This document shows positions 1 to 38,639 of a DNA stretch of 64,000 nt, piece by piece. The position numbers and the translations under genes are program-made. How positions within the stretch are numbered: position 1 is the stretch's first letter; the number at the start of each line of letters is the position of its first letter. The notes under the pieces are model-generated. The model made no database searches and was not told the DNA's origin. It saw only the letters and a list, made by a program, of their open reading frames with translations. The DNA is from a phage, in sequence record PZ026127.1. One strand, given 5' to 3'.

Positions 1-263
1 AGATTGGATTCACAGCATACGATCCTGCGTTCCTGAAAGACCTAGGTGAGTTCAAATATTCAAGCAATAAGAATCTACATCTGTTCTTATATACAGTGCC
101 TGTGGAACACGAGCAGTTCAAGGATTGCAAATGTACGGCTTACCATACGTTCCCTGATGGTCGTACTATTCCTGAATTCGATGCGTTCGCTTTGATTAAA
201 CGTCCGCAATGGGAATATGTCATGGGCCAGTCGATGTTTAAGGTTTTAGATTCACTCTTTTGA
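1..263 (+). CDS. 3' end of upstream gene (partial, unknown function)
   Basis: Open frame running to TGA at 261-263; directly precedes the late promoter of the lysozyme gene. Confidence 0.35.
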   Translation, partial: IGFTAYDPAFLKDLGEFKYSSNKNLHLFLYTVPVEHEQFKDCKCTAYHTFPDGRTIPEFDAFALIKRPQWEYVMGQSMFKVLDSLF

Positions 264-290
264 TATAAATACCTCCTATACTCAGGAGGT
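264..290 (+). promoter_or_regulatory. T4-type late promoter plus SD-sequestering hairpin upstream of lysozyme gene
   Basis: TATAAATA at 264-271; inverted repeat ACCTCCT (271-277) / AGGAGGT (284-290) contains the SD; ATG at 294. Matches the known T4 gene e arrangement. Confidence 0.5.
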
Positions 291-293
291 ATT

Positions 294-782
294 ATGGATA
301 TTTTTGATATGTTACGTCAAGACGAAGGTCTTGATTTAAATCTTTATAAAGACACTGAAGGTTATTGGACTATTGGTATTGGCCAATTGATTACTAAGAA
401 CCCATCTAAAGACGTTGCTCGCGCTGAACTTGATAAGCTTATGGGTCGAGTTTGTAATGGTCGTATTACTATGGCTGAAGCCGAACAACTCTTTAACCGG
501 TCGGTTGAAAATGCTCGTAGAGCTATTCTGCGTAATCCTAAATTGAAACCTGTTTATGATGTATTGGACGAAGTTCGTCGTTGTGCTTTAATTAACATGG
601 TCTTCCAAATGGGTGAAGCAGGTGTAGCAGGGTTCACTAACTCTTTACGTATGCTCCAACAGAAACGTTGGGACGATGCGGCAGTTAACCTGGCTCAATC
701 CCGTTGGTATAAACAAACTCCAAATCGTGCTAAGCGCGTGATTTCAACATTTAAAACCGGCACATGGGCTGCTTATAGATAA
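294..782 (+). CDS. e: Phage lysozyme (T4 endolysin e family)
   Basis: 162 aa; close match to T4 lysozyme along its length (LRx[17 protein letters not shown], [32 protein letters not shown], TPNRAKRVI). Confidence 0.95.
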
Positions 783-869
783 AAGCAGTTTACATCTCCT
801 AGAATTGTGATAGTATATCTACAGTTACTTGAACAGACCAATTAAAATATTTACCTTTAAGGAACCCGT

Positions 870-1466
870 ATGAAAACGTATAAAGAATTTATCGCCGAAG
901 CTTCTGTAGGAAAGGTCCAAGGCATTAATAAAGATGAGTGGACTTACAAAGGAAACGGCGTTGACAACCCAGGAAACGGTTTTGACGCTAAAACAGCTCC
1001 TATTGAACGGTATTTAGCTACAAAGGCTTCCGACTTTAAAGCTTTCGCCTGGGAAGGACTTCGCTGGCGTAACGACCTAAATATTGAAGCTGATGGACTT
1101 AAATTTGCCCATATCCAAGATGTTGTTGCTAGTAACTTGGACGCAGCTTTTGTTAAAGCTGACGGTGACCTTCGTCGCTGGAATTTAAAACTGTTCTCTA
1201 AACAGAAAGGTCCTGTATTTGTACCTAAAGCAGGTAAATGGACTATTGATAATAAATTGGCTAAGGCGGTCAACTTCGCCGGTCTTGAATTTGCCAAGCA
1301 TAAATCCGCATGGAAAGGTCTTGATGCAATGACTTTCCGTAAAGAATTTGCCGATGTTATGGTTAAAGGCGGCTTTAAGGCAGAGATAGATACCTCTAAA
1401 GGTACGTTTAAAGACGCTAATATTCAGTACGCTTACGCCGTTGCTAATGCAGCCCGTGGTAATTAA
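870..1466 (+). CDS. Internal protein with capsid targeting sequence (IpIII-like)
   Basis: N-terminus MKTYKEFIAEA matches the T4 internal-protein capsid targeting sequence; 198 aa; adjacent to e as in T4. Confidence 0.6.
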   Translation: MKTYKEFIAEASVGKVQGINKDEWTYKGNGVDNPGNGFDAKTAPIERYLATKASDFKAFAWEGLRWRNDLNIEADGLKFAHIQDVVASNLDAAFVKADGDLRRWNLKLFSKQKGPVFVPKAGKWTIDNKLAKAVNFAGLEFAKHKSAWKGLDAMTFRKEFADVMVKGGFKAEIDTSKGTFKDANIQYAYAVANAARGN

Positions 1467-1491
1467 TAAAGCTGATACTTGATAAAAAGCA

Positions 1492-1542
1492 GTTTACATC
1501 TCCTGTAGTCATGATACTATAGACCTATCAACTACAGGAGAT
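1492..1542 (+). promoter_or_regulatory. Early promoter / stem-loop cassette (PeSL-like) upstream of denV
   Basis: GTTTAC 1492-1497, 17-nt spacer, TGaTACTAT 1512-1520, conserved AGACCTATCAAC; perfect 11-bp inverted repeat ATCTCCTGTAG (1498-1508) / CTACAGGAGAT (1532-1542) enclosing the -10 and SD. Confidence 0.6.
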
Positions 1543-1548
1543 TAAAAA

Positions 1549-1956
1549 ATGACTCGTATCAACCTTACCTTAGTATCTGAATTGGCTGACCAACACTTAA
1601 TGGCTGAATACCGTGAACTCCCACGGATTTTTGGTGCGGTTCGCGAACGTATTGCCAAAGGGCAAGGCTTCTCTGATATCCCTAAAGACTTCCGCCTTGG
1701 TGCAGGGCACGTCAAGTTCTTTTATGACAAAATTGGATTTTTGTTCTTGCGACAAAATGCAATAATTGAGGAACTTCTGAAGCGTGGTTACCAGATTCAA
1801 AATACCCATGTAGACGTAGCGGATATTCCATTACGGCTCATGAACGATTTCACCCCATCCGAAGCTGATATAGCTTTAAGCCAAGCTCGTCTGGACGAAA
1901 AAATTGCACAGCGTCCTACCTGGTACAAACATTACGGCAAGGCTATTTACGCTTAA
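1549..1956 (+). CDS. denV: Endonuclease V (pyrimidine dimer DNA glycosylase)
   Basis: 135 aa; strong match to T4 DenV ([26 protein letters not shown], GAGHVxFFYDK, [25 protein letters not shown]). Confidence 0.92.
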
Positions 1957-1998
1957 TTAAATCCGTGATAGAATATTTCTATCAACTTAAGGAATAAT

Positions 1999-2358
1999 AT
2001 GAAAACTTACCAACAATTTATTACTGAATCTACTCAGCGCATTAACGAAGCTATGTCTCCTGAACAATTGGCTAAGGCTAAAGAAGGGCTGAACCCATCT
2101 GAAGTTTTTAAAGTTACAGGTAAAGACTTTGCTTCCATGGCCACTAACCAAAGTCTGGCTAAAGAACTTAAATCTAAATCTAACTTCATTCATGCTACAT
2201 GGAATGGTGATTCTCTTACTTCAATAAGCGTGTACAATAAAAAAGGTCTCCTTAAGAGCTCTTATGGCGCTGATGCCATCCGTGTTTCTAAATCAGATTG
2301 GCATAAAAACACTACTAAAGCAGAAAAACCTCATAACCCAGCCCTTGACCATCTTTAA
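1999..2358 (+). CDS. Internal protein with capsid targeting sequence
   Basis: N-terminus MKTYQQFITEST; 119 aa; no other recognisable domain. Confidence 0.55.
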   Translation: MKTYQQFITESTQRINEAMSPEQLAKAKEGLNPSEVFKVTGKDFASMATNQSLAKELKSKSNFIHATWNGDSLTSISVYNKKGLLKSSYGADAIRVSKSDWHKNTTKAEKPHNPALDHL

Positions 2359-2366
2359 GGAATAAT

Positions 2367-2624
2367 ATGAAAACTTATCAAGAATTTATTACAGAATCCA
2401 CTTTAGTTTCTAAACGTTGGAATATGATTGTAAACGTTAAACCTTCCGGCACTGAAGTTTCTATGGCCGACCCTAATGATGACGAACTTGAGCACGCTTT
2501 TAGCTCTAAAGAAACTGACGAGAAAGTGGTTAAGCAACTGGTTGCTGATGCAGACCAACTTCGTAAAGTAGCAGATGTTGTTAAGCTGTTTACTAAGAAA
2601 GGTTTTAAACACGAAGAACGTTAA
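2367..2624 (+). CDS. Internal protein with capsid targeting sequence
   Basis: N-terminus MKTYQEFITEST, near-identical to the preceding ORF's N-terminus; 85 aa, acidic. Confidence 0.55.
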   Translation: MKTYQEFITESTLVSKRWNMIVNVKPSGTEVSMADPNDDELEHAFSSKETDEKVVKQLVADADQLRKVADVVKLFTKKGFKHEER

Positions 2625-2773
2625 TTAGCATTTTAAATGGGAGCAACCTGGACCTCACAATTCTGTGAGGGACTCCCGCCAACCTGTAATAAGGTCGAGC
2701 CCAAGTGCGGTAATGGGTAAATGCAGAAAGGGACGAATTAATGTGCCAAGGAACGGCCCTCAAAGGAAATACT

Positions 2774-3301
2774 ATGAAATTTTTAACTCCCATTTATCTA
2801 ACCTTAATGCACGCCTTCGCTGAACGCGCCATTGAACGTTTAGACTCAGACCAATATACCTGGTATGAACCTGCTTCAAGAATGCAAGAGTTTGGTACTC
2901 TTCGACTTGATGGCGGACGCCAAACAGGTAAAACAAGTGCCCTTGCTCAGTTCGCCGCTGATTGGGTTTCCAAGGGTAATGATGTGATTGTTATGTCGAG
3001 TTCTTCGCATCGCTCGCGAGAAATTTGTAATGTAATAAAACAGGTTTCTAAGGCACACCCACATCTCCAAGTCGAAGGTCCTGGTTTTGTTGTCTATGAT
3101 ACTGTGCGCAGTTTCCTTGATGAAGACAATTTCCATAAGTATCGTGGACTATCTGTTACTCGATTATTGATTATTATCGAAGAGCCAATGCGCCTTCCAG
3201 CGATGGATAAGTTCTATGAAGCTTACCAGGTAATGATTAATAAATTTATGTGCCAAGGCGACAAGCCTTTGCCTCTGTTCTTTGTGATAGGAATGCAATG
3301 A
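2774..3301 (+). CDS. Hypothetical P-loop NTPase
   Basis: Walker A-like GGRQTGKTS and Walker B-like LLIIIEEP; start moved to ATG 2774 (SD AAAGGAAA upstream). Confidence 0.4.
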   Translation: MKFLTPIYLTLMHAFAERAIERLDSDQYTWYEPASRMQEFGTLRLDGGRQTGKTSALAQFAADWVSKGNDVIVMSSSSHRSREICNVIKQVSKAHPHLQVEGPGFVVYDTVRSFLDEDNFHKYRGLSVTRLLIIIEEPMRLPAMDKFYEAYQVMINKFMCQGDKPLPLFFVIGMQ

Positions 3302-3594
3302 TGACTGATGAAGAACTTTTTGAGTTCTGTTATTTCTCACGTAAGGTTCGAAGAGAGGACCTTACTGCAAATTTCGAATATGCTTATTTCTACCCATTGG
3401 AATATGTATTCATGACAGGGCCCTTTAAGGGCCCTCGTTTTAGATGTCATGCCCCAAGCATCCGATTAATGAAACAGGTTCCTTACTTCACCCTCGAGTT
3501 CATCTCAGGGCCTTGTAAGGGTATTATTACTCGCAGTCTCTTAACTTATGACCAAGAGATTCATATGATTTCTGATTGGAAAAAATATGTCTAA
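3298..3594 (+). CDS. Hypothetical protein
   Basis: ORF with ATGA start/stop overlap with upstream gene; unknown function. Confidence 0.35.
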   Translation: MMTDEELFEFCYFSRKVRREDLTANFEYAYFYPLEYVFMTGPFKGPRFRCHAPSIRLMKQVPYFTLEFISGPCKGIITRSLLTYDQEIHMISDWKKYV

Positions 3595-9593: not shown

Positions 9594-10052
9594 ATGATTA
9601 TGATTATCAATGCAAACTCTTGGCACGCTAAACTTCATGACCGTTTTTATGACAGTCATTCTCGACCGCACTCTTTATGTGCTTACTTCTGGAAAATGGT
9701 TTGGGCTTGTTTTGCTTGTGCTGTTGTTGCAGGTAGTACGCTTTTTGGATTAACTGTTGCAGGTGTTGGTGTATTAGAGCATTTCTTTGTATTAAGTACC
9801 CCTGTTCTGTTGAGTCTAGGGTTTGTTTTAGGATTGGTTGCAATAGCTCTTATTATTGCGCTATCCATTGGTTTGGCATTCGGTGCGATGAATTTACACG
9901 CATGGTATGATGCCCGTAGAGAAGAAAAGGAACGGCAACGTATTCAAGCTGAGCGTGAAGGCCGAGAAACTAAAGAAAACATCGTTATTCAATACATTAA
10001 AGCTCGTAAATCTAAGGTCTGTCCGGTAATCCACTTCGAGGACAAAGAATGA
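9594..10052 (+). CDS. Hypothetical membrane protein
   Basis: Two predicted hydrophobic helices; basic C-terminus. Confidence 0.45.
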   Translation: MIMIINANSWHAKLHDRFYDSHSRPHSLCAYFWKMVWACFACAVVAGSTLFGLTVAGVGVLEHFFVLSTPVLLSLGFVLGLVAIALIIALSIGLAFGAMNLHAWYDARREEKERQRIQAEREGRETKENIVIQYIKARKSKVCPVIHFEDKE

Positions 10053-11059
10053 GAACAGTTATGAAAGGCTACTTCGGTAGCCACCTTTATGGAACAAGTA
10101 CTCCAGAATCTGATGTTGATTTTAAAGAAATCTTTGTTCCACATCCGCGTGATATTCTGTTAGGTACGGCTATGAACCATACCAACCTGAATACGAATAA
10201 CACAGCTTCTAAAAACACTAAAGATGATGTTGACCACGAGCTTTACAGCCTGAAATATTTCTTTAAACTGGCTGCTGATGGCGAAACCGTTGCTCTGGAT
10301 ATGCTCCACACTCCACCTGAAATGGTGGTTAAATCTGATTTACCTGATGTATGGAAATTTATCCAAGACAATCGTTCTCGGTTCTATACGACTAACATGA
10401 AAGCCTATTTAGGGTACGTCCGTAAGCAAGCTTCTAAATATGGTGTTAAGGGTTCTCGACTAGCTGCACTGCGTGGTGTACTGGCTATTGTTAACCAGAT
10501 TCCTGAACAGTGGGTTGACTATCAAGAAGGAATCCCTGATAGACTTCGTCGTACTAAGGTAGAAGATATCAAACACAGACTCCCTGAAAATGAGTTCTGT
10601 GAATGGGTATTCCATAACCATGAGAAAACAGGCCCTCAAACGTTCTATACTGTTCTAGGACGTAAGTACCAAACTACTTTGTCTTTAATCGAGCTCAAGC
10701 AATCTCTGAATAAGCTTGATGCTGAATATGGCGAACGTGCTCGTAAGGCTGAAGCTAATGAAGGTATCGATTGGAAAGCTCTGAGCCATGCTTATCGTGC
10801 CGGTTATCAGTTGAAGGAAATCTATATGACCGGCGATCTCAAATATCCTTTACGTACAGCACCGTTTATCCTTGAAATCAAACAAGGGCTACATGCTTTT
10901 AAAGATGTGCAGGCTGAACTTGAAGCTATTGTAGATGAAGTCGAAACTAATGCTATCTGGGCCGCTAAGAATGGTATGCCTGATAAGGTAGACATGAAAT
11001 TCTGGGACAAGTTCGTTGAAGAGGTGTACCTAGAAAACCATAACTCGTATTATAAATGA
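10049..11059 (+). CDS. Pol-beta-superfamily nucleotidyltransferase-like protein
   Basis: N-terminal GSHLYGTSTPESDVDF fits the minimal NTase motif GS-x(9-13)-D-x-D; 336 aa. Confidence 0.45.
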   Translation: MRTVMKGYFGSHLYGTSTPESDVDFKEIFVPHPRDILLGTAMNHTNLNTNNTASKNTKDDVDHELYSLKYFFKLAADGETVALDMLHTPPEMVVKSDLPDVWKFIQDNRSRFYTTNMKAYLGYVRKQASKYGVKGSRLAALRGVLAIVNQIPEQWVDYQEGIPDRLRRTKVEDIKHRLPENEFCEWVFHNHEKTGPQTFYTVLGRKYQTTLSLIELKQSLNKLDAEYGERARKAEANEGIDWKALSHAYRAGYQLKEIYMTGDLKYPLRTAPFILEIKQGLHAFKDVQAELEAIVDEVETNAIWAAKNGMPDKVDMKFWDKFVEEVYLENHNSYYK

Positions 11060-34404: not shown

Positions 34405-34464
34405 GCAATACCAATTTATTAAAAATAGTGTATAATGTACCTACATTCACTTGAGGAACAGATA

Positions 34465-36138
34465 ATGAAAAAGGTTGTTATTTTAGGCGCGGGTCTTGGC
34501 TCACGGTTGTATCCAATTACCAACGAAATCCCGAAGGTACTGGTTAACTACAAACAACATACTGTATTAAAACATTTGTATGATTTGTATAGTAATCAAT
34601 CAGATGAAATTATTCTGGTTATTCACAGCAAATTTAACGACCTCGTTAAAGGCTATATTAAATCCATTAACATGATTAATAGTGATAAGCCTAAATTCAC
34701 TATTCGTAACGTTGATGTTGCCAATGGTTCGGCTCATGCTATCGATTGCATTGCCGAAGATATCATTGGGCACAATGTCTTGTTTAACTGGTGTGATATT
34801 ATTCCTGAAGGTCATAAAGTTGAGTGGGATAACGACTACTGTTATACCTATGGGACTGACTGTCGTTTTACATTTGAAGAACCGTACTTGCGTGAAATTG
34901 GTACCGGTGGTGGCGTAGTTGGCTTGTATCAGGTGGCTAATTGGACAGGTTTCGACCGTTCTAATTATGGTGAAGACCTTGCTGACAACCTGGATTCAAT
35001 GGTCCATTTGACTGAACGTAAGTTAGACTTTGTAGTTGATGTTGGTGACAAACTGAAACTGGCTAAGGCCCATGAAGATTCTGAAATTAACCGTGAATTT
35101 AATAAATTAGAGTTCACTGAGAATCTAGCTATTAAAGTACCTACAAACGAATTAGGTAAAGAAATCCAATCTAAAGAAATCAATTGGTACAATTCTATTG
35201 ATTCTGAATTCGTTCCTAGCATTGTAGACTTTGCTCCAGGTGAATTCATTAAAATGGAACGTATCTTTGGTCGAACCATGGCAGATGCCTACCGGTTTAT
35301 GTCTAAAGAAACTAAAGTCCTAATGGTTTATAAGGTTATTAGTGCATTACGTTCGTTCGGTGGAACTATCGATAATCCATCTGATGAGCAATGGTATTCT
35401 GATGTTAAGAAAGAAGTATTGGACAAGGTCCTTATTCGTAATGCTTCTATCGCCGGATTGATTGAAGGCTTTGCTCCACAGGGCATTACCCATGTTAACG
35501 ACTTTAAGGTAGGCGACCCTGAAAAACTTCTTCGCCATGCACTAGAAATTCTGTCTGAACATAAAGAACCGTACCAACTTATTCATGGCGACCCGCACTA
35601 CAGTAATATTATGTTGTCGGACGAAGGTGATATTAAAATCATCGACCCACGTGGTTATTTTGGTAATAGTTCTAAAGGCCCTGCGATTTATGATGAAGCT
35701 AAGGTGCTTTATTCTATCGATGGTTATGACAAATTTAACTCTGACCCTCTATGGGGTGGCTTAACTCGTAACGGAACTCGTGTATTCGTTGATATTGAAA
35801 AGGTTATGCCTTTAGATGATATTCCAATGTGTACATTTAAGCACAAGCTCTGGATTGCTGTTATCTGGATGGCATTGGCAGGTTACTTTAAAAATAACCC
35901 TCTGAAAGCTCTGGGTGCTTATTACAACGGTTTGTACCAACTGAGTGTGCTGCTGAAGCGACATCCTCGTAAGCGTAAGCTTATCACAGGTGAATTCGTT
36001 GATGAAGTTCGCGACCCTATCACGGCTCAAATTATCACTCGTTGTCCTGATAAGTGGGTTTTGCTTGACCAAGAAACTGGTGTAAAATATAAACCTACAG
36101 GTTCTACTGAACTCCACAAACAATGGAAGAAAATTTAA
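34465..36138 (+). CDS. Bifunctional sugar-1-phosphate nucleotidyltransferase / APH-family (anomeric sugar) kinase
   Basis: N-terminal KVVILGAGLGSRLYPIT...PKVLV matches the RmlA/GlmU-type NTase signature; C-terminal IHGDPHYSNIML (Brenner HGDxxxxN) and IIDPRG typical of APH/choline-kinase-like kinases. Confidence 0.6.
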   Translation: MKKVVILGAGLGSRLYPITNEIPKVLVNYKQHTVLKHLYDLYSNQSDEIILVIHSKFNDLVKGYIKSINMINSDKPKFTIRNVDVANGSAHAIDCIAEDIIGHNVLFNWCDIIPEGHKVEWDNDYCYTYGTDCRFTFEEPYLREIGTGGGVVGLYQVANWTGFDRSNYGEDLADNLDSMVHLTERKLDFVVDVGDKLKLAKAHEDSEINREFNKLEFTENLAIKVPTNELGKEIQSKEINWYNSIDSEFVPSIVDFAPGEFIKMERIFGRTMADAYRFMSKETKVLMVYKVISALRSFGGTIDNPSDEQWYSDVKKEVLDKVLIRNASIAGLIEGFAPQGITHVNDFKVGDPEKLLRHALEILSEHKEPYQLIHGDPHYSNIMLSDEGDIKIIDPRGYFGNSSKGPAIYDEAKVLYSIDGYDKFNSDPLWGGLTRNGTRVFVDIEKVMPLDDIPMCTFKHKLWIAVIWMALAGYFKNNPLKALGAYYNGLYQLSVLLKRHPRKRKLITGEFVDEVRDPITAQIITRCPDKWVLLDQETGVKYKPTGSTELHKQWKKI

Positions 36139-36521
36139 TGTCACATCGAGTAGAAAATAAGCCTCATTTATGTTTTGACATCGATAACACAATCACGATT
36201 TGGAACCATGACCGTGATTATGAAAACTTTAAACCGGACACCGAAATGGTGTCCATGATTAATAAGCTTTATGATGAAGGATGCGAGATTACCTTGTTCA
36301 CTGCCCGTGGTATGACTTCATGCGGTCCAGGTCGAATCTTGGTTGAAGTAGTTCCTGCATTGGTTAAGAATCTTGAAAAGATTGGATTGAAATATCATAA
36401 TCTGCTTACACATAAGCCGAGTTATACTTTTATCATCGATGACCGAGCAATCCGTCCTGACCACTTTAAAGAAATGGTTCGTGAAGGAACTCTTGAAACC
36501 TATAAGGCATATCATCCGTGA
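36138..36521 (+). CDS. HAD-superfamily phosphatase
   Basis: Motif I FDIDNTIT (DxDxT), motif II LFTARG, motif IV IIDDR; TAATG overlap with upstream gene. Confidence 0.6.
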   Translation: MSHRVENKPHLCFDIDNTITIWNHDRDYENFKPDTEMVSMINKLYDEGCEITLFTARGMTSCGPGRILVEVVPALVKNLEKIGLKYHNLLTHKPSYTFIIDDRAIRPDHFKEMVREGTLETYKAYHP

Positions 36522-37054
36522 AACCAAAAATCATTGTTATCGACGGCCCGGATAATTCCGGGAAGTCTACTTTAATTGAATCGCTTTTATCTGATAAGAA
36601 ATATCGTCTTATCGATTTCCCTAAAAAGATTAATGGTAAGTGCATTTCGATAGGGACTGATAATGACAAGGCTTTAGTCGAGACGTTGTATAAGTTTTTA
36701 GACCCTAATTTTGTCTACATCTTAGACCGTGGATATCCTAGTAATATTGTTTACTCAGGATTCCTTCGTGGTGAAATGGACCCCTATGTAGAACTGGAAG
36801 ATTGGAAAGGGTTTAAATCTGAATTCAATATTATTGAGGTTATTTTAACCCGTAATCCACTGGATAAAGACTTTGAAGATGACCTTATTAAATTAACCAA
36901 AGATGAGTTCAACCTAACTATCCGGCAATATGAAACATGTTTTGAAAACGTGTTTAAAATCTTAAATCACGACGGCCATAATAACTTGCTTAACGTCGAT
37001 ATGGTAGAATTAAAACGTCTGAATGAATATATTGAAAATAAGGTGAATAAATGA
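36518..37054 (+). CDS. P-loop kinase (thymidylate/dNMP kinase-like)
   Basis: IIVIDGPDNSGKSTL Walker A at N-terminus, DRGYPS; 178 aa. Confidence 0.5.
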   Translation: MKPKIIVIDGPDNSGKSTLIESLLSDKKYRLIDFPKKINGKCISIGTDNDKALVETLYKFLDPNFVYILDRGYPSNIVYSGFLRGEMDPYVELEDWKGFKSEFNIIEVILTRNPLDKDFEDDLIKLTKDEFNLTIRQYETCFENVFKILNHDGHNNLLNVDMVELKRLNEYIENKVNK

Positions 37055-37749
37055 AACACATTACCGCTGTTAGTTTTGAAAACGCGTTTAAGCAAATGAA
37101 CGAAGAAATCCTGGAAGCTCCACAGTTTGCAGTTGATTCTCGTATCGGCCGTTGTTATGAAATTGGTTCTGCTTCGGTAGAAGTACTGGATGCAAGCACC
37201 TATAAATTCACCGACCCTCGTATTAATCGTATCAACTATGATTATGCCGAATCTTTCTGGAAGTTTATGATTTCTGGTGGTACTGACGCCGCCGAAGCAT
37301 TTAAGGAATACCCTAATGTTGCTAAGTTCATTGATAAGCCGAAAAGTGACGTATTGCCTGCAAACTTCAACACTTTCTATGGACCTAGAATTGTGGCCCA
37401 ACTCCCAGCCTTACTTAAAGAGCTTAAAGAGAAGCCTAACTCAAGACGAGTTGTGTTCCAAATTCTCCAAGAACAAGACCAAGCCCTCCTTGATTCTGAC
37501 GAATCCTTAGAATATCCATGTACCGATTCGGTGACATATTATATTCGTGATGGACGTCTGTATGCACACACTCATATGCGTTCACAGAACTGTGCTATTG
37601 TTATGCAGCTGGATTTCTATCTGCAGGGTAAACTGATGGCCTTTATTGCTGAACAGTGTGGTGTTGGTCTGGGTACGTATTCCCATACTATGGTTAGTGC
37701 ACACGTATTTGAACGTGATTTTGACTACGTTCGAGGATTCCTGAAATGA
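37051..37749 (+). CDS. 42: dCMP hydroxymethylase (thymidylate synthase fold)
   Basis: RRVVFQI, catalytic Cys in EYPCTDS, MRSQN...LDF with Asp at the pyrimidine-discriminating position as in T4 gp42; T4 position. Confidence 0.75.
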   Translation: MKHITAVSFENAFKQMNEEILEAPQFAVDSRIGRCYEIGSASVEVLDASTYKFTDPRINRINYDYAESFWKFMISGGTDAAEAFKEYPNVAKFIDKPKSDVLPANFNTFYGPRIVAQLPALLKELKEKPNSRRVVFQILQEQDQALLDSDESLEYPCTDSVTYYIRDGRLYAHTHMRSQNCAIVMQLDFYLQGKLMAFIAEQCGVGLGTYSHTMVSAHVFERDFDYVRGFLK

Positions 37750-38639
37750 GTTTGTTTATCGTTCCTATTTTCAGTATGCGTAGTTACGAAACAGGTGAAT
37801 ATGCCGTCCTTAAGGACGGCAATTTTCAACTCCATTTAAACCGTGCTTGCCCAGGTGATTATCTGGCTTATCCTAGAAATTCGAGCGATATCAAAGAATG
37901 CATTGAATTATTTCCTGAACTGAATTTTGTACCTCTTTGGTATAAAGAAAATGCTTATGAAACTCGTAAACATTTTTGGTCTGAAAATGAGTTCGTTGTT
38001 GATTCGTTAATCGAATACTATGACTGCTCAGGATTGGTAACCGATATCACAGGTTATGATGGTGCTCATACCGTACAATTCAACTTTAACATTACAATGG
38101 ACCCTGAAGTTCCTCGTTATTACATCGATGAGTTTATTGATACCGACGTGGGTTCAGTTGAACGTTCGATTTATACTACAGTCTTGAATCAATGTCAGAA
38201 AGACGTCCTGGTGTCACGAGGTGCGTCCTCTGATAAGATTTTTGTAGACCAAAAGGTAATTAATCCTGCAGTAATTGAGCGTTACTCTGAAGGTCTAGCG
38301 CCTATTAAAATTGATGGTATTTTCCATCCATTCCGTATTTCAGATAAATGCTACCAATTCGAAAGAGTTGTAGACCAGGCTGCGGCTGAGGGTTCTCGTC
38401 TTTACATCACCGACCCGAATGATTCATTTAAGCGTGAAGACTATCGTCCTGATGTAGAGATTATTAAATTCAAACCGAGTAAGGTTGAATATTATCAGAT
38501 TCTGAAATCAAGACCTCATATCATTTATCATGAGAATCCCGGTTTAGTATTCCATCCTGGTCTGGCTGAATTCATTTATTTCGGTGCCCACATCCATTCT
38601 GAGCACGAAATGCCAAGTTATGAGGACGTGGTCCTTTAA
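37746..38639 (+). CDS. Orphan protein in beta-glucosyltransferase slot (candidate DNA glycosyltransferase)
   Basis: 297 aa between 42 and uvsX, where T4 has beta-gt; no resemblance to T4 alpha- or beta-gt that I can recognise. Confidence 0.3.
   Translation: MSLFIVPIFSMRSYETGEYAVLKDGNFQLHLNRACPGDYLAYPRNSSDIKECIELFPELNFVPLWYKENAYETRKHFWSENEFVVDSLIEYYDCSGLVTDITGYDGAHTVQFNFNITMDPEVPRYYIDEFIDTDVGSVERSIYTTVLNQCQKDVLVSRGASSDKIFVDQKVINPAVIERYSEGLAPIKIDGIFHPFRISDKCYQFERVVDQAAAEGSRLYITDPNDSFKREDYRPDVEIIKFKPSKVEYYQILKSRPHIIYHENPGLVFHPGLAEFIYFGAHIHSEHEMPSYEDVVL

Follow-up and report, generated by a model that had tools for sequence, protein, structure and literature searches.

Three open reading frames near the start of a 64,000-nucleotide stretch of phage DNA (sequence record PZ026127.1, hereafter the window) very likely represent three independent tagged cassettes, whose products would, by analogy with T4, be packaged into the phage head, trimmed by the gp21 protease and injected with the DNA, each blocking one host defence, and which would be exchanged between phages by recombination. 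The window belongs to a Dhakavirus wg01-type T-even phage, T4-like and of the JS98/WG01 type. T-even phages have two internal-protein hotspots, one of them being the interval between genes e and vs.8. All three tag-bearing ORFs lie within this locus (e-denV-vs.8; the other locus is ipI near 57B), where the gene order is e-ipIII-denV-IP119-IP85-vs.8. The features of the region are:

264..271, + strand: T4-type late promoter TATAAATA upstream of e, the sole exact late-promoter match in 1-3400
294..782, + strand: gene e (lysozyme; Pfam Phage_lysozyme E = 1.2e-12; phrog_7), upstream anchor of the hotspot
781..817, + strand: copy 1 of a 37-nt repeat resembling a sigma-70 early promoter (GTTTACA ... 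TAGTAT), ahead of ipIII
870..1466, + strand: ipIII orthologue, 198 aa, tag at 870-899 (codons 1-10); phrog_5341 E = 6.6e-115
1485..1521, + strand: early-promoter-like repeat, copy 2, upstream of denV
1549..1956, + strand: denV (endonuclease V; Pfam Pyr_excise E = 3.4e-15; phrog_1183 E = 3.9e-52)
1999..2358, + strand: IP119, uncharacterised, 119 aa, tag at 1999-2028 (FITE↓S, the arrow marking the predicted cut); phrog_3966 'unknown' E = 3.9e-26
2367..2624, + strand: IP85, uncharacterised, 85 aa, tag at 2367-2396 (FITE↓S); identical to WG01 gp114
2638..2760, + strand: pseudoknotted RNA element between IP85 and vs.8 (covariation and covariance-model match)
2774..3301, + strand: vs.8 homologue, P-loop protein (phrog_1488 E = 6.7e-69), downstream anchor of the hotspot

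The initial annotation had assigned the T4 internal-protein targeting peptide to these three ORFs, and we found the ten-residue tag at all three starts (MKTYKEFIAE in ORF 870, MKTYQQFITE in ORF 1999 and MKTYQEFITE in ORF 2367); both T4 IPII and T4 IPIII start with MKTYQEFIAE. In six frames of the whole 64-kb window MKTY occurred three times, each time at the start of one of these ORFs. Since three matches to a ten-residue pattern fall at ORF starts within 1.5 kb, chance cannot account for them. T4 genetics identified Y4 and F7 as needed for targeting and I8 and E10 for processing (PMC9026906), and all four residues were retained in the three ORFs. Inspection for prohead protease cleavage sites, which had been proposed as a check, revealed the gp21 motif L/I-x-E (PMC9026906) at residues 8-10 of every protein (IAE↓A, ITE↓S and ITE↓S). 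The T4 tag by itself brings foreign proteins into heads (PMC3012670, PMC9026906). Because all three ORFs carry this capsid-targeting sequence, they are candidate injected proteins. The genes for the gp21 protease and the gp22 scaffold lie outside the 64-kb window; in WG01, a phage of the same species whose gp115 and gp114 are identical to IP119 and IP85, genes for the portal, gp67, gp68, gp21, gp22, gp23, gp24 and Inh are present.

The suggestion that the three might be novel injected effectors was borne out in so far as all of them bear the tag and so qualify as candidates by sequence, but it did not hold for ORF 870, which by homology is the orthologue of T4 IPIII and hence not novel. Its match to phrog_5341 (IPIII family; Pfam Phage_T4_IpIII) covered residues 1-198, i.e. 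the full length, and identity to T4 IPIII was 87-90%; IP119 and IP85 matched the same family through the tag only in a profile search. ORF 870 and T4 IPIII share length class, position directly after e, tag and cleavage site, whereas ORF 870 has an insertion of five residues close to its N-terminus and K5 in place of Q5, and resides in a phage with probably arabinosylated DNA while T4 DNA is glucosylated. The predicted gp21 cut after E10 (FIAE↓A) would leave a mature protein of 188 aa with a pI of 9.5.

IP119 is, on sequence similarity, a member of the RB69ORF123c / phrog_3966 family. Homologues occur in 91 phage records, with identities of ≥90% in 13 and of about 36% in the other 78, among them RB69ORF123c, which showed 33-36% identity to IP119 across the whole mature part and is likewise encoded between denV and vs.8. 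RB69ORF123c lacks the E10 cleavage residue (FIAA), whereas in IP119 E10 is intact and residues 15-17 (INE↓A) offer a further candidate L/I-x-E site. The mature part of IP119 (109 residues) has a pI of 9.5 and that of IP85 (75 aa) a pI of 6.1. The cut after E10 is predicted to create Ser11 N-termini in both, STQRINEAMSPEQLAK... in IP119 and STLVSK... in IP85, or Ala18 in IP119 if the second site were used. IP85 is rare, with 7 of 50,697 phage records encoding it, all at ≥97% identity. An exhaustive HMMER search of 1.84 billion representative proteins returned two IP85 clusters and added one relative with 56% identity, likewise encoded as the last gene before vs.8; the surroundings of denV in that phage hold five tag-bearing genes. 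Several phages have IP119 without IP85, so the two are separate cassettes.

As had been noted earlier, the mature parts of the three proteins are mutually dissimilar (best pairwise BLASTP E = 0.84), and those of IP119 and IP85 showed no similarity to T4 IPII and IPIII (BLASTP E above 0.4). Searches of Pfam, NCBIfam and PHROGs with IP119 and IP85 returned nothing beyond tag-level matches or families of 'unknown function', a word-indexed homology search returned their own clusters only, and PDB sequences contained no real match to any chain. One match of IP119 to chain 9hnh_A, which has no molecule name, was attributed to chance (whole-sequence E = 4e-4, per-stretch E = 0.67, in a repeated segment). 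AlphaFold2 models calculated with no alignment were of low confidence for IP119 (pLDDT 69) and IP85 (pLDDT 64), and the IP119 model had no PDB fold match at E ≤0.001 in Foldseek. In the literature searched, neither virion proteomics nor injection data turned up for IP119 or IP85, and nothing usable on virion proteomics of JS98-type phages or on RB69ORF123c-125c. Both sequences are already deposited in GenBank as 'hypothetical protein', with IP119 annotated as 'hypothetical' in every source but one, and they are a functionally uncharacterised pair.

Substitution patterns indicate that all three tag-bearing ORFs are real genes under purifying selection (pN/pS 0.053/0.235 for the IPIII orthologue against T4 IPIII; pN 0.42 and pS 0.70 for IP119 against its RB69 homologue; pN 0.31 and pS 0.75 for IP85). 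It seems highly improbable that IP119 and IP85 are not packaged and have kept the MKTY start simply as a recombination or translation-initiation module. Such a module would fit a 48-nt block, comprising the ribosome site and tag codons and repeated at 858, 1987 and 2355, which is conserved as DNA (92% identity between the copies at 1987 and 2355), as well as the tag fragments at cassette 3' ends (NWMKTYK*) and the loss of E10 in RB69ORF123c. However, the four functionally mapped tag residues are intact in IP119, IP85 and the 56%-identical IP85 relative, they were kept although synonymous sites elsewhere in the gene are saturated, and the ten tag residues are sufficient for packaging in T4 (PMC9026906).

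That internal proteins include anti-restriction factors, as the initial annotation noted, has long been established for the variable internal proteins (PMC3012670, PMC12373910), and IP119 and IP85 are probable further members of this established class, whose proteins vary strongly and probably act against restriction. Following T4 biology, the tag would dock each protein on the prohead's scaffolding core of gp22, cleavage by the gp21 protease would follow after E10 (I-A/T-E↓A/S), and the mature proteins of 188, 109 and 75 residues would remain with the packaged DNA and be injected at infection. Each would then bind and block one first-response defence of the host, by analogy with T4 Ip1, Ip2 and Ip3, every one of which inhibits a single GmrSD variant (PMC12373910, PMC9391042). 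The likeliest targets would be variants of the GmrSD-type type IV restriction enzymes which attack sugar-modified phage DNA. T4 IPIII inhibits a two-gene GmrSD enzyme (PMC12373910), and by analogy its orthologue would most likely block the two-gene GmrS1/GmrSD2 type (ECOR17-type). The dissimilarity of IP119 and IP85 to IPI*, IPII and IPIII leaves the same mode of action possible, because Ip1-3 are themselves mutually unrelated.

We consider it unlikely that the three proteins are mainly structural head contents serving DNA charge neutralisation, core assembly, packaging or ejection with no specific host target. The basic character of the mature IPIII orthologue and of IP119 would suit such a role, and in T4 the internal proteins are present in about 300 copies each and bind DNA at low salt (PMC9026906), their lysines touch DNA phosphates (PMC3012670), and IPIII contributes to head assembly, its loss halving the assembly rate and lowering the burst (PMC9026906). 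IP85, however, is not basic, and a generic charge role would leave unexplained why at least 31 unrelated families vary in presence and absence at the strain level. Moreover, all three T4 internal proteins have specific GmrSD targets, and tag-less T4 IPIII expressed in the host is active in the cytoplasm (PMC12373910, PMC9391042).

When ten further ip genes were assayed against five additional active GmrSD groups, no new inhibitory pairs emerged (PMC12373910), and some internal proteins may therefore have targets other than GmrSD. In this phage the DNA modification is probably arabinosylated 5-hydroxycytosine and not glucosyl-hmC, so the T4 targets may not transfer, and arabinosylated DNA would face a different set of modification-dependent nucleases. 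Any cargo can ride on the tag (PMC3012670, PMC9026906). It is thus possible, if doubtful, that IP119 and IP85 are injected effectors against non-GmrSD defences or that they act in an Alt-like takeover of host functions. Alt is a packaged ADP-ribosyltransferase, but no enzymatic domain or family match was found for the two proteins in Pfam, NCBIfam, PHROGs, PDB sequences or the fold search, and their 109 and 75 residues fit stoichiometric binders such as IPI*. GmrSD is also the target of all three internal proteins characterised to date. A rather speculative extension would make IP85, and possibly IP119, an injected inhibitor of a defence outside the range of the characterised internal proteins, an example of which would be a nuclease specific for arabinosylated 5-hydroxycytosine DNA or a non-GmrSD first-response system. 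If this were true, the extreme rarity of IP85 would reflect a counter-move made recently, in an arms race confined to a narrow set of hosts and phages.

Comparison with relatives showed how injected inhibitors of this kind might be gained and lost. The initial annotation had correctly placed denV (1549-1956) between the internal-protein ORFs, after ORF 870 and before ORFs 1999 and 2367. Its description of an arrangement rearranged around denV applies relative to T4 only (e-ipIII-ipII-denV), as tag-bearing genes also flank denV on both sides in JS98, RB69, WG01, ABTNLS3, fDHCT2 and a metagenomic relative; the gene order of Shigella phage PSD9 is identical to that of this phage. Because ipII is absent here, the difference from T4 amounts to gain and loss of cassettes and not to a shuffle of the same genes. 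Among nine relatives compared, cassette content varied at three slots. Slot A separates e from ipIII; this phage has no gene there, whereas in WG01 and ABTNLS3 it holds a gene for a 132-aa protein starting with MKTYNEFIAE that overlaps the end of e. Across 65 IMG/VR loci together with GenBank loci we counted at least 31 unrelated mature-domain families behind the same tag. denV is a fixed gene within this cassette array, present here as a mosaic allele with a central part unlike those of T4, JS98 and WG01, and the vs.8 homologue is 38-50% identical to its counterparts in T4, JS98 and L041.

The late promoter upstream of e is likely the source of late transcripts, from which read-through into the internal-protein genes would follow. 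No exact TATAAATA dedicated to each internal-protein gene was present in the locus and none directly upstream of IP119 or IP85; T4, JS98, PSD9 and L007 likewise have the late promoter upstream of e only. The early-promoter-like block has homologous counterparts in T4 upstream of ipIII, ipII and denV, and the region of copy 2 differs very little from the T4 ipII-denV spacer. An inverted repeat, CTCCTGTAG (1500-1508) and CTACAGGAG (1532-1540), overlaps this copy and covers the -10 region together with the ribosome site of denV. Indel boundaries between relatives coincided with the promoter and tag repeats. In ABTNLS3, which has ipII after ipIII, homology is lost about 20 nt past the ipIII stop and regained at the start of denV. 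The 132-aa cassette found in WG01 and JS98 carries a remnant of the tag at its 3' end, where its product reads '...NWMKTYK*'. Cassettes are therefore probably gained, lost and moved via homologous recombination between repeated boundary DNA, composed of the early-promoter/stem-loop blocks and the block of ribosome site plus tag, and recombination of these repeats would explain why cassette number and position relative to denV vary among close relatives.

The conserved RNA adjacent to the internal-protein genes was a less expected item than the proteins themselves. It adjoins the cassettes and need not belong to them. Stem P1 is formed by 2639-2643/2673-2677, the inner hairpin by 2653-2659/2664-2670, and the pseudoknot by CUG at 2648-2650 pairing with CAG at 2724-2726; the invariant core spans 2682-2713. 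The covariance-model score was 83.5 bits (E = 1e-19), covariation tests on alignments supported the pairing, and the element occurred in more than 1000 phage genomes. Folded as a single sequence, the window copy did not stand out (z = -0.45), and a naive per-sequence search for stem and pseudoknot was no better than shuffles (combined P = 0.30), so the structure is drawn from aligned covariation only. Rfam 15 gave no gathering-score match in the window, chance-level matches only for 2560-2860 (E ≥3), and no match over the copies of the element in Murica, Ivi and PEi20. None was found in E. coli genomes, and in bacterial and archaeal species genomes a first scan returned nothing and a second, looser scan two chance-like matches; an origin from host genomes was rejected on these grounds. 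An HDV-like ribozyme, which has the same topology, was also rejected, as the joining strand has no conserved C and the invariant nucleotides fall in the domain that such ribozymes can do without. A riboswitch specific to vs.8 is unlikely, since outside T-even phages the downstream genes are unrelated.

The overall picture of internal proteins is unchanged by these results, as their class, variability and likely role were already established. They are preformed and delivered with the DNA, act before any phage gene expression, and help to decide which wild strains T-even phages infect. Dozens of tag-bearing families beyond the three of T4 are without a known target, 31 of them in the small sample used here. 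IP119 and IP85 are orphans of a phage-therapy lineage (E. coli, Shigella, Salmonella) with DNA chemistry unlike that of T4, and their targets would add pairs of defence and counter-defence and aid the prediction of host range.

Hypervariable internal-protein loci of T-even phages were reportedly described by Repoila et al. in 1994, the classic description being that of the ipI locus, and PeSL-mediated modular shuffling is said to have been described by Arbiol in 2010. The same features recur here, i.e. a conserved tag, unrelated bodies, promoter/stem-loop flanks and content varying between close relatives; compared with the classic ipI description, it is the second locus (e-denV-vs.8) that behaves alike, and does so at three slots. 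The early-promoter-like block resembles PeSLs, promoter/stem-loop cassettes which have been proposed to mediate such modular shuffling (Comeau 2014, PMC4122927). With T4 IPI* and IPII (Ip1 and Ip2), which are injected GmrSD inhibitors, IP119 and IP85 share the tag, small size, hotspot location and strain-level variability. Anti-CRISPR loci are similar in that small, unrelated and fast-exchanged inhibitor genes are found beside a conserved anchor gene; however, anti-CRISPR-type products are made after infection, whereas internal proteins arrive preformed with the DNA through their packaging tag.

Three genes around denV in the window encoded proteins that begin with the ten-residue capsid-targeting sequence (tag) of the T4 internal proteins:

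294-782, + strand, e lysozyme
870-1466, + strand, 198-aa ORF (ORF 870), start MKTYKEFIAE
1549-1956, + strand, denV
1999-2358, + strand, 119-aa ORF (IP119), start MKTYQQFITE
2367-2624, + strand, 85-aa ORF (IP85), start MKTYQEFITE
2774-3301, + strand, vs.8 homologue, ATG at 2774

Across all six frames of the 64-kb window MKTY was confined to the starts of these three ORFs, confirming the shared tag reported in the initial annotation; T4 IPII and IPIII have the identical start MKTYQEFIAE. At the DNA level a 48-nt block comprising the ribosome site and the tag codons was repeated at 858, 1987 and 2355, the copies at 1987 and 2355 being 92% identical. Pairwise comparison of the three mature parts showed no relatedness among them, as had been claimed, and denV was indeed located between ORF 870 on one side and IP119 and IP85 on the other.

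T4 genetics has assigned capsid targeting chiefly to tag residues 4 and 7 and processing to residues 8 and 10; in IPIII, residues 1-10 are enough for incorporation into heads, and the prohead protease gp21 cleaves after Glu in L/I-x-E (PMC9026906). GFP and a nuclease have also been brought into heads by the tag (PMC3012670). All three ORFs retained Y4, F7, I8 and E10, with variation restricted to positions 5, 6 and 9, so that the cleavage-site inspection proposed in the initial annotation found I8 and E10 intact throughout. IP119 contained a second candidate gp21 site at residues 15-17 (INE, with A after the cut). The head module of T4 type is complete in the related phage WG01, including the gp21 maturation protease, the gp22 scaffold and Inh. 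Packaging and processing of all three products are strongly predicted from these sequences.

ORF 870 matched phrog_5341 (E = 6.6e-115) and was 87-90% identical to T4 IPIII, and is by this similarity an IPIII orthologue. The expectation of novel injected effectors therefore did not hold for this known protein; IP119 and IP85 are new and uncharacterised, and their injection is predicted. Both are sequence-identical to proteins of WG01 (gp115 and gp114, respectively) deposited as hypothetical. IP119 belongs to phrog_3966 ("unknown function") and was detected by tblastn in 91 phage records, 13 of them at >=90% identity, mostly JS98/WG01-type phages, and 78 at about 36%, among them RB69ORF123c. The IP119 copy of Escherichia phage vB_EcoM_ESCO10 (UPW37832.1) has been named 'RNA polymerase ADP-ribosylase'; family searches of the IP119 sequence yielded nothing in favour of this name, which is probably an annotation artefact. 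IP85 showed no family membership beyond the tag and was present in 7 of 50,697 phage genomes. When 1.84 billion representative proteins were searched exhaustively with HMMER, the only hit besides the cluster of IP85 itself was a single relative at 56% identity. This relative is encoded on a metagenomic T-even contig with five tag-bearing genes around denV, where IPIII itself lies downstream of denV. Compared with their most distant homologues, IP85 (pN 0.31, pS 0.75) and IP119 (pN 0.42, pS 0.70) showed non-synonymous divergence far below the saturated synonymous divergence, and both are therefore real genes. Single-sequence AlphaFold2 models were of low confidence (pLDDT 64 for IP85, 69 for IP119), and neither a fold search with this low-confidence IP119 model nor PDB sequence searches gave a meaningful match.

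The region was 97% identical to the Dhakavirus genomes of Salmonella phage ABTNLS3, Shigella phage PSD9 and Escherichia phage WG01, and PSD9 had exactly the gene order of the window.

Gene order between e and vs.8 in related phages (IP, internal-protein gene).
T4: e-ipIII-ipII-denV-vs.8
JS98: e-ipIII-IP(132 aa)-denV-IP(99 aa)-vs.8
WG01: e-IP(132 aa)-ipIII-denV-IP119-IP85-vs.8
ABTNLS3: WG01 order plus ipII between ipIII and denV
RB69: e-IP-denV-IP-IP-IP-vs.8
VR5: e-ip3-ip7-denV-vs.8
fDHCT2: e-ipIII-ipII-denV-IP(99 aa)-vs.8

The description of these genes as rearranged around denV was thus correct with respect to T4; judged from deposited sequences, T4 is the exception, and the window-type arrangement is usual in the group and already on record. 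Because gene orders differ among relatives, we distinguish three slots (e to ipIII, ipIII to denV, denV to vs.8) that are filled and emptied independently with cassettes, each one tagged internal-protein gene. In the window the first two were empty and the third held two cassettes. A sample of 65 IMG/VR loci, taken together with the GenBank loci, yielded 31 mature domains behind the same tag, none related to another.

Cassette boundaries coincided with repeated DNA. A 37-nt early-promoter-like block preceded both ipIII and denV in the window and was homologous to blocks upstream of T4 ipIII, ipII and denV, and ABTNLS3 homology to the window was lost about 20 nt past the ipIII stop and regained at the denV start. 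The 132-aa cassette (MKTYNEFIAE...; absent from the window, found in relatives at L001 2026-2424, L004 1326-1724 and L003 2258-2656) occupied the e-ipIII slot in WG01 and ABTNLS3, where it starts within the last codons of e, and the ipIII-denV slot in JS98. Its 3' end always reads ...NWMKTYK*, a tag fragment, which suggests recombination inside the tag-coding DNA itself. Boundaries at repeats agree with the model of shuffling by promoter/stem-loop units and with earlier findings at the ipI locus (PMC4122927). The denV gene was a mosaic allele, its ends matching T4, JS98 and WG01 and residues of about 30-110 representing a different variant common to ABTNLS3 and metagenomic contig L007.

The interval from the IP85 stop (2624) to the vs.8 ATG (2774) contained a putative RNA element (2638-2760, + strand). 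The 150 nt of this interval were conserved as nucleotide sequence in T4, RB69, JS98, VR5, ABTNLS3 and the metagenomic contig that encodes the IP85 relative, whereas the adjoining vs.8 proteins were just 38-63% identical. The reading frame across the element was not conserved: in T4 the stretch is annotated as an N-terminal extension of vs.8, and in the window this frame forms an ORF of its own (52 aa). By BLASTN, 1066 of 50,697 phage records contained the element. Its 47-nt core was >90% identical in Vequintavirus phages, which are unrelated; in one of these, Murica, the core is intergenic and close to the tRNA cluster. The element was also present in the 45-kb phage Ivi and in similar IMG/VR contigs of about 46 kb. 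No copy was found in 5,426 E. coli genomes, and the element was effectively missing from 185,579 bacterial and archaeal species genomes (no match in a first scan, two chance-like matches in a second, looser one). It matched no Rfam 15 family, and the core sequence was not found in the literature searched. Edwardsiella phage PEi20 carried two tandem copies upstream of vs.8 (L079 1440-1554 and 1575-1694). On metagenomic contig L041 the element was followed by another MKTY internal-protein gene and then vs.8, with a weak partial second copy about 300 nt further downstream, 5' of the vs.8 gene (copies at 9895-9983 and 10297-10440). In four IMG/VR contigs of about 46 kb (L081, L082, L086, L088) the core lay in a long region without a nearby ORF of >=35 aa, flanked by an invariant 8-bp complement, GUUGUGAC ... 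GUCACAAC.

The proposed fold comprises a first stem (P1), a closing helix, an invariant hairpin (ACCU-GUAAYA-AGGU), a 3' hairpin and a pseudoknot that pairs the P1 loop with a stretch lying 3' of the core. In a MAFFT alignment of 12 RB69/JS98-type copies, built without structure guidance, 94.7% of cells were paired versus 27-48% with partners slid, six pairs had changed on both sides, and the covariation score was 0.171 versus 0.063 in shuffles, a value reached by 0 of 500. The long-range helix also emerged independently from RNAalifold, which showed three pair types in it. With a covariance model that left out the pseudoknot, the window copy reached 83.5 bits, and copies from outside the T-even phages reached 34-47 bits (E 1e-7 to 1e-10); in the model-fitted alignment, which leans towards the model, every pair of P1 and the closing helix had both-side changes. 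Six unmodelled nucleotides at fixed columns paired better with the sequence downstream in their own copy than with the corresponding sequence from other lineages (permutation P about 5e-5). Covariation thus supports P1, the closing helix and the pseudoknot as predicted structures. When each sequence was searched naively for any combination of stem and pseudoknot, the real copies did no better than shuffles, and the window copy folded alone was unremarkable. The element lay on the strand of its flanking genes in every context examined, and frequent U-G pairs fit that strand. Since the downstream genes differ outside T-even phages, a vs.8-specific riboswitch is disfavoured and an autonomous RNA module favoured. 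A hairpin immediately ahead of the vs.8 ribosome site, GCC-AAGGAAC-GGC (2745-2757; GCCA-AGGAA-UGGC in relatives), presents GGA in its loop and is, by resemblance, a candidate CsrA-type binding hairpin.

The window also contained an RB69-like arabinosylation cluster (34435-38639) encoding a nucleotidyltransferase/kinase fusion (567 aa), a kinase-like protein and a thymidylate-synthase homologue, and no glucosyltransferases are annotated in WG01, including the region collinear with this cluster. Synthesis of arabinosylated 5-hydroxycytosine has been predicted for Dhakaviruses (PMC13326640). The phage thus probably packages arabinosylated DNA and not glucosyl-hmC DNA, so the host nucleases facing it may differ from those restricting T4. 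Each of the T4 proteins Ip1, Ip2 and Ip3 inhibits a different GmrSD-type type IV restriction enzyme, without cross-protection, and IPIII is active in the cytoplasm without its tag; GmrSD variants were proposed as targets of all proteins from the two Ip loci, and ten further ip genes assayed against five additional active systems found no partner (PMC12373910, PMC9391042). The anti-restriction role invoked in the initial annotation is an idea already established; the observation made there was genuine and its interpretation broadly right. On the model of the T4 proteins, the probable target of the IPIII orthologue is a GmrS1/GmrSD2-type enzyme, while IP119 and IP85 would probably each block another first-response defence, as new members of the established internal-protein class.
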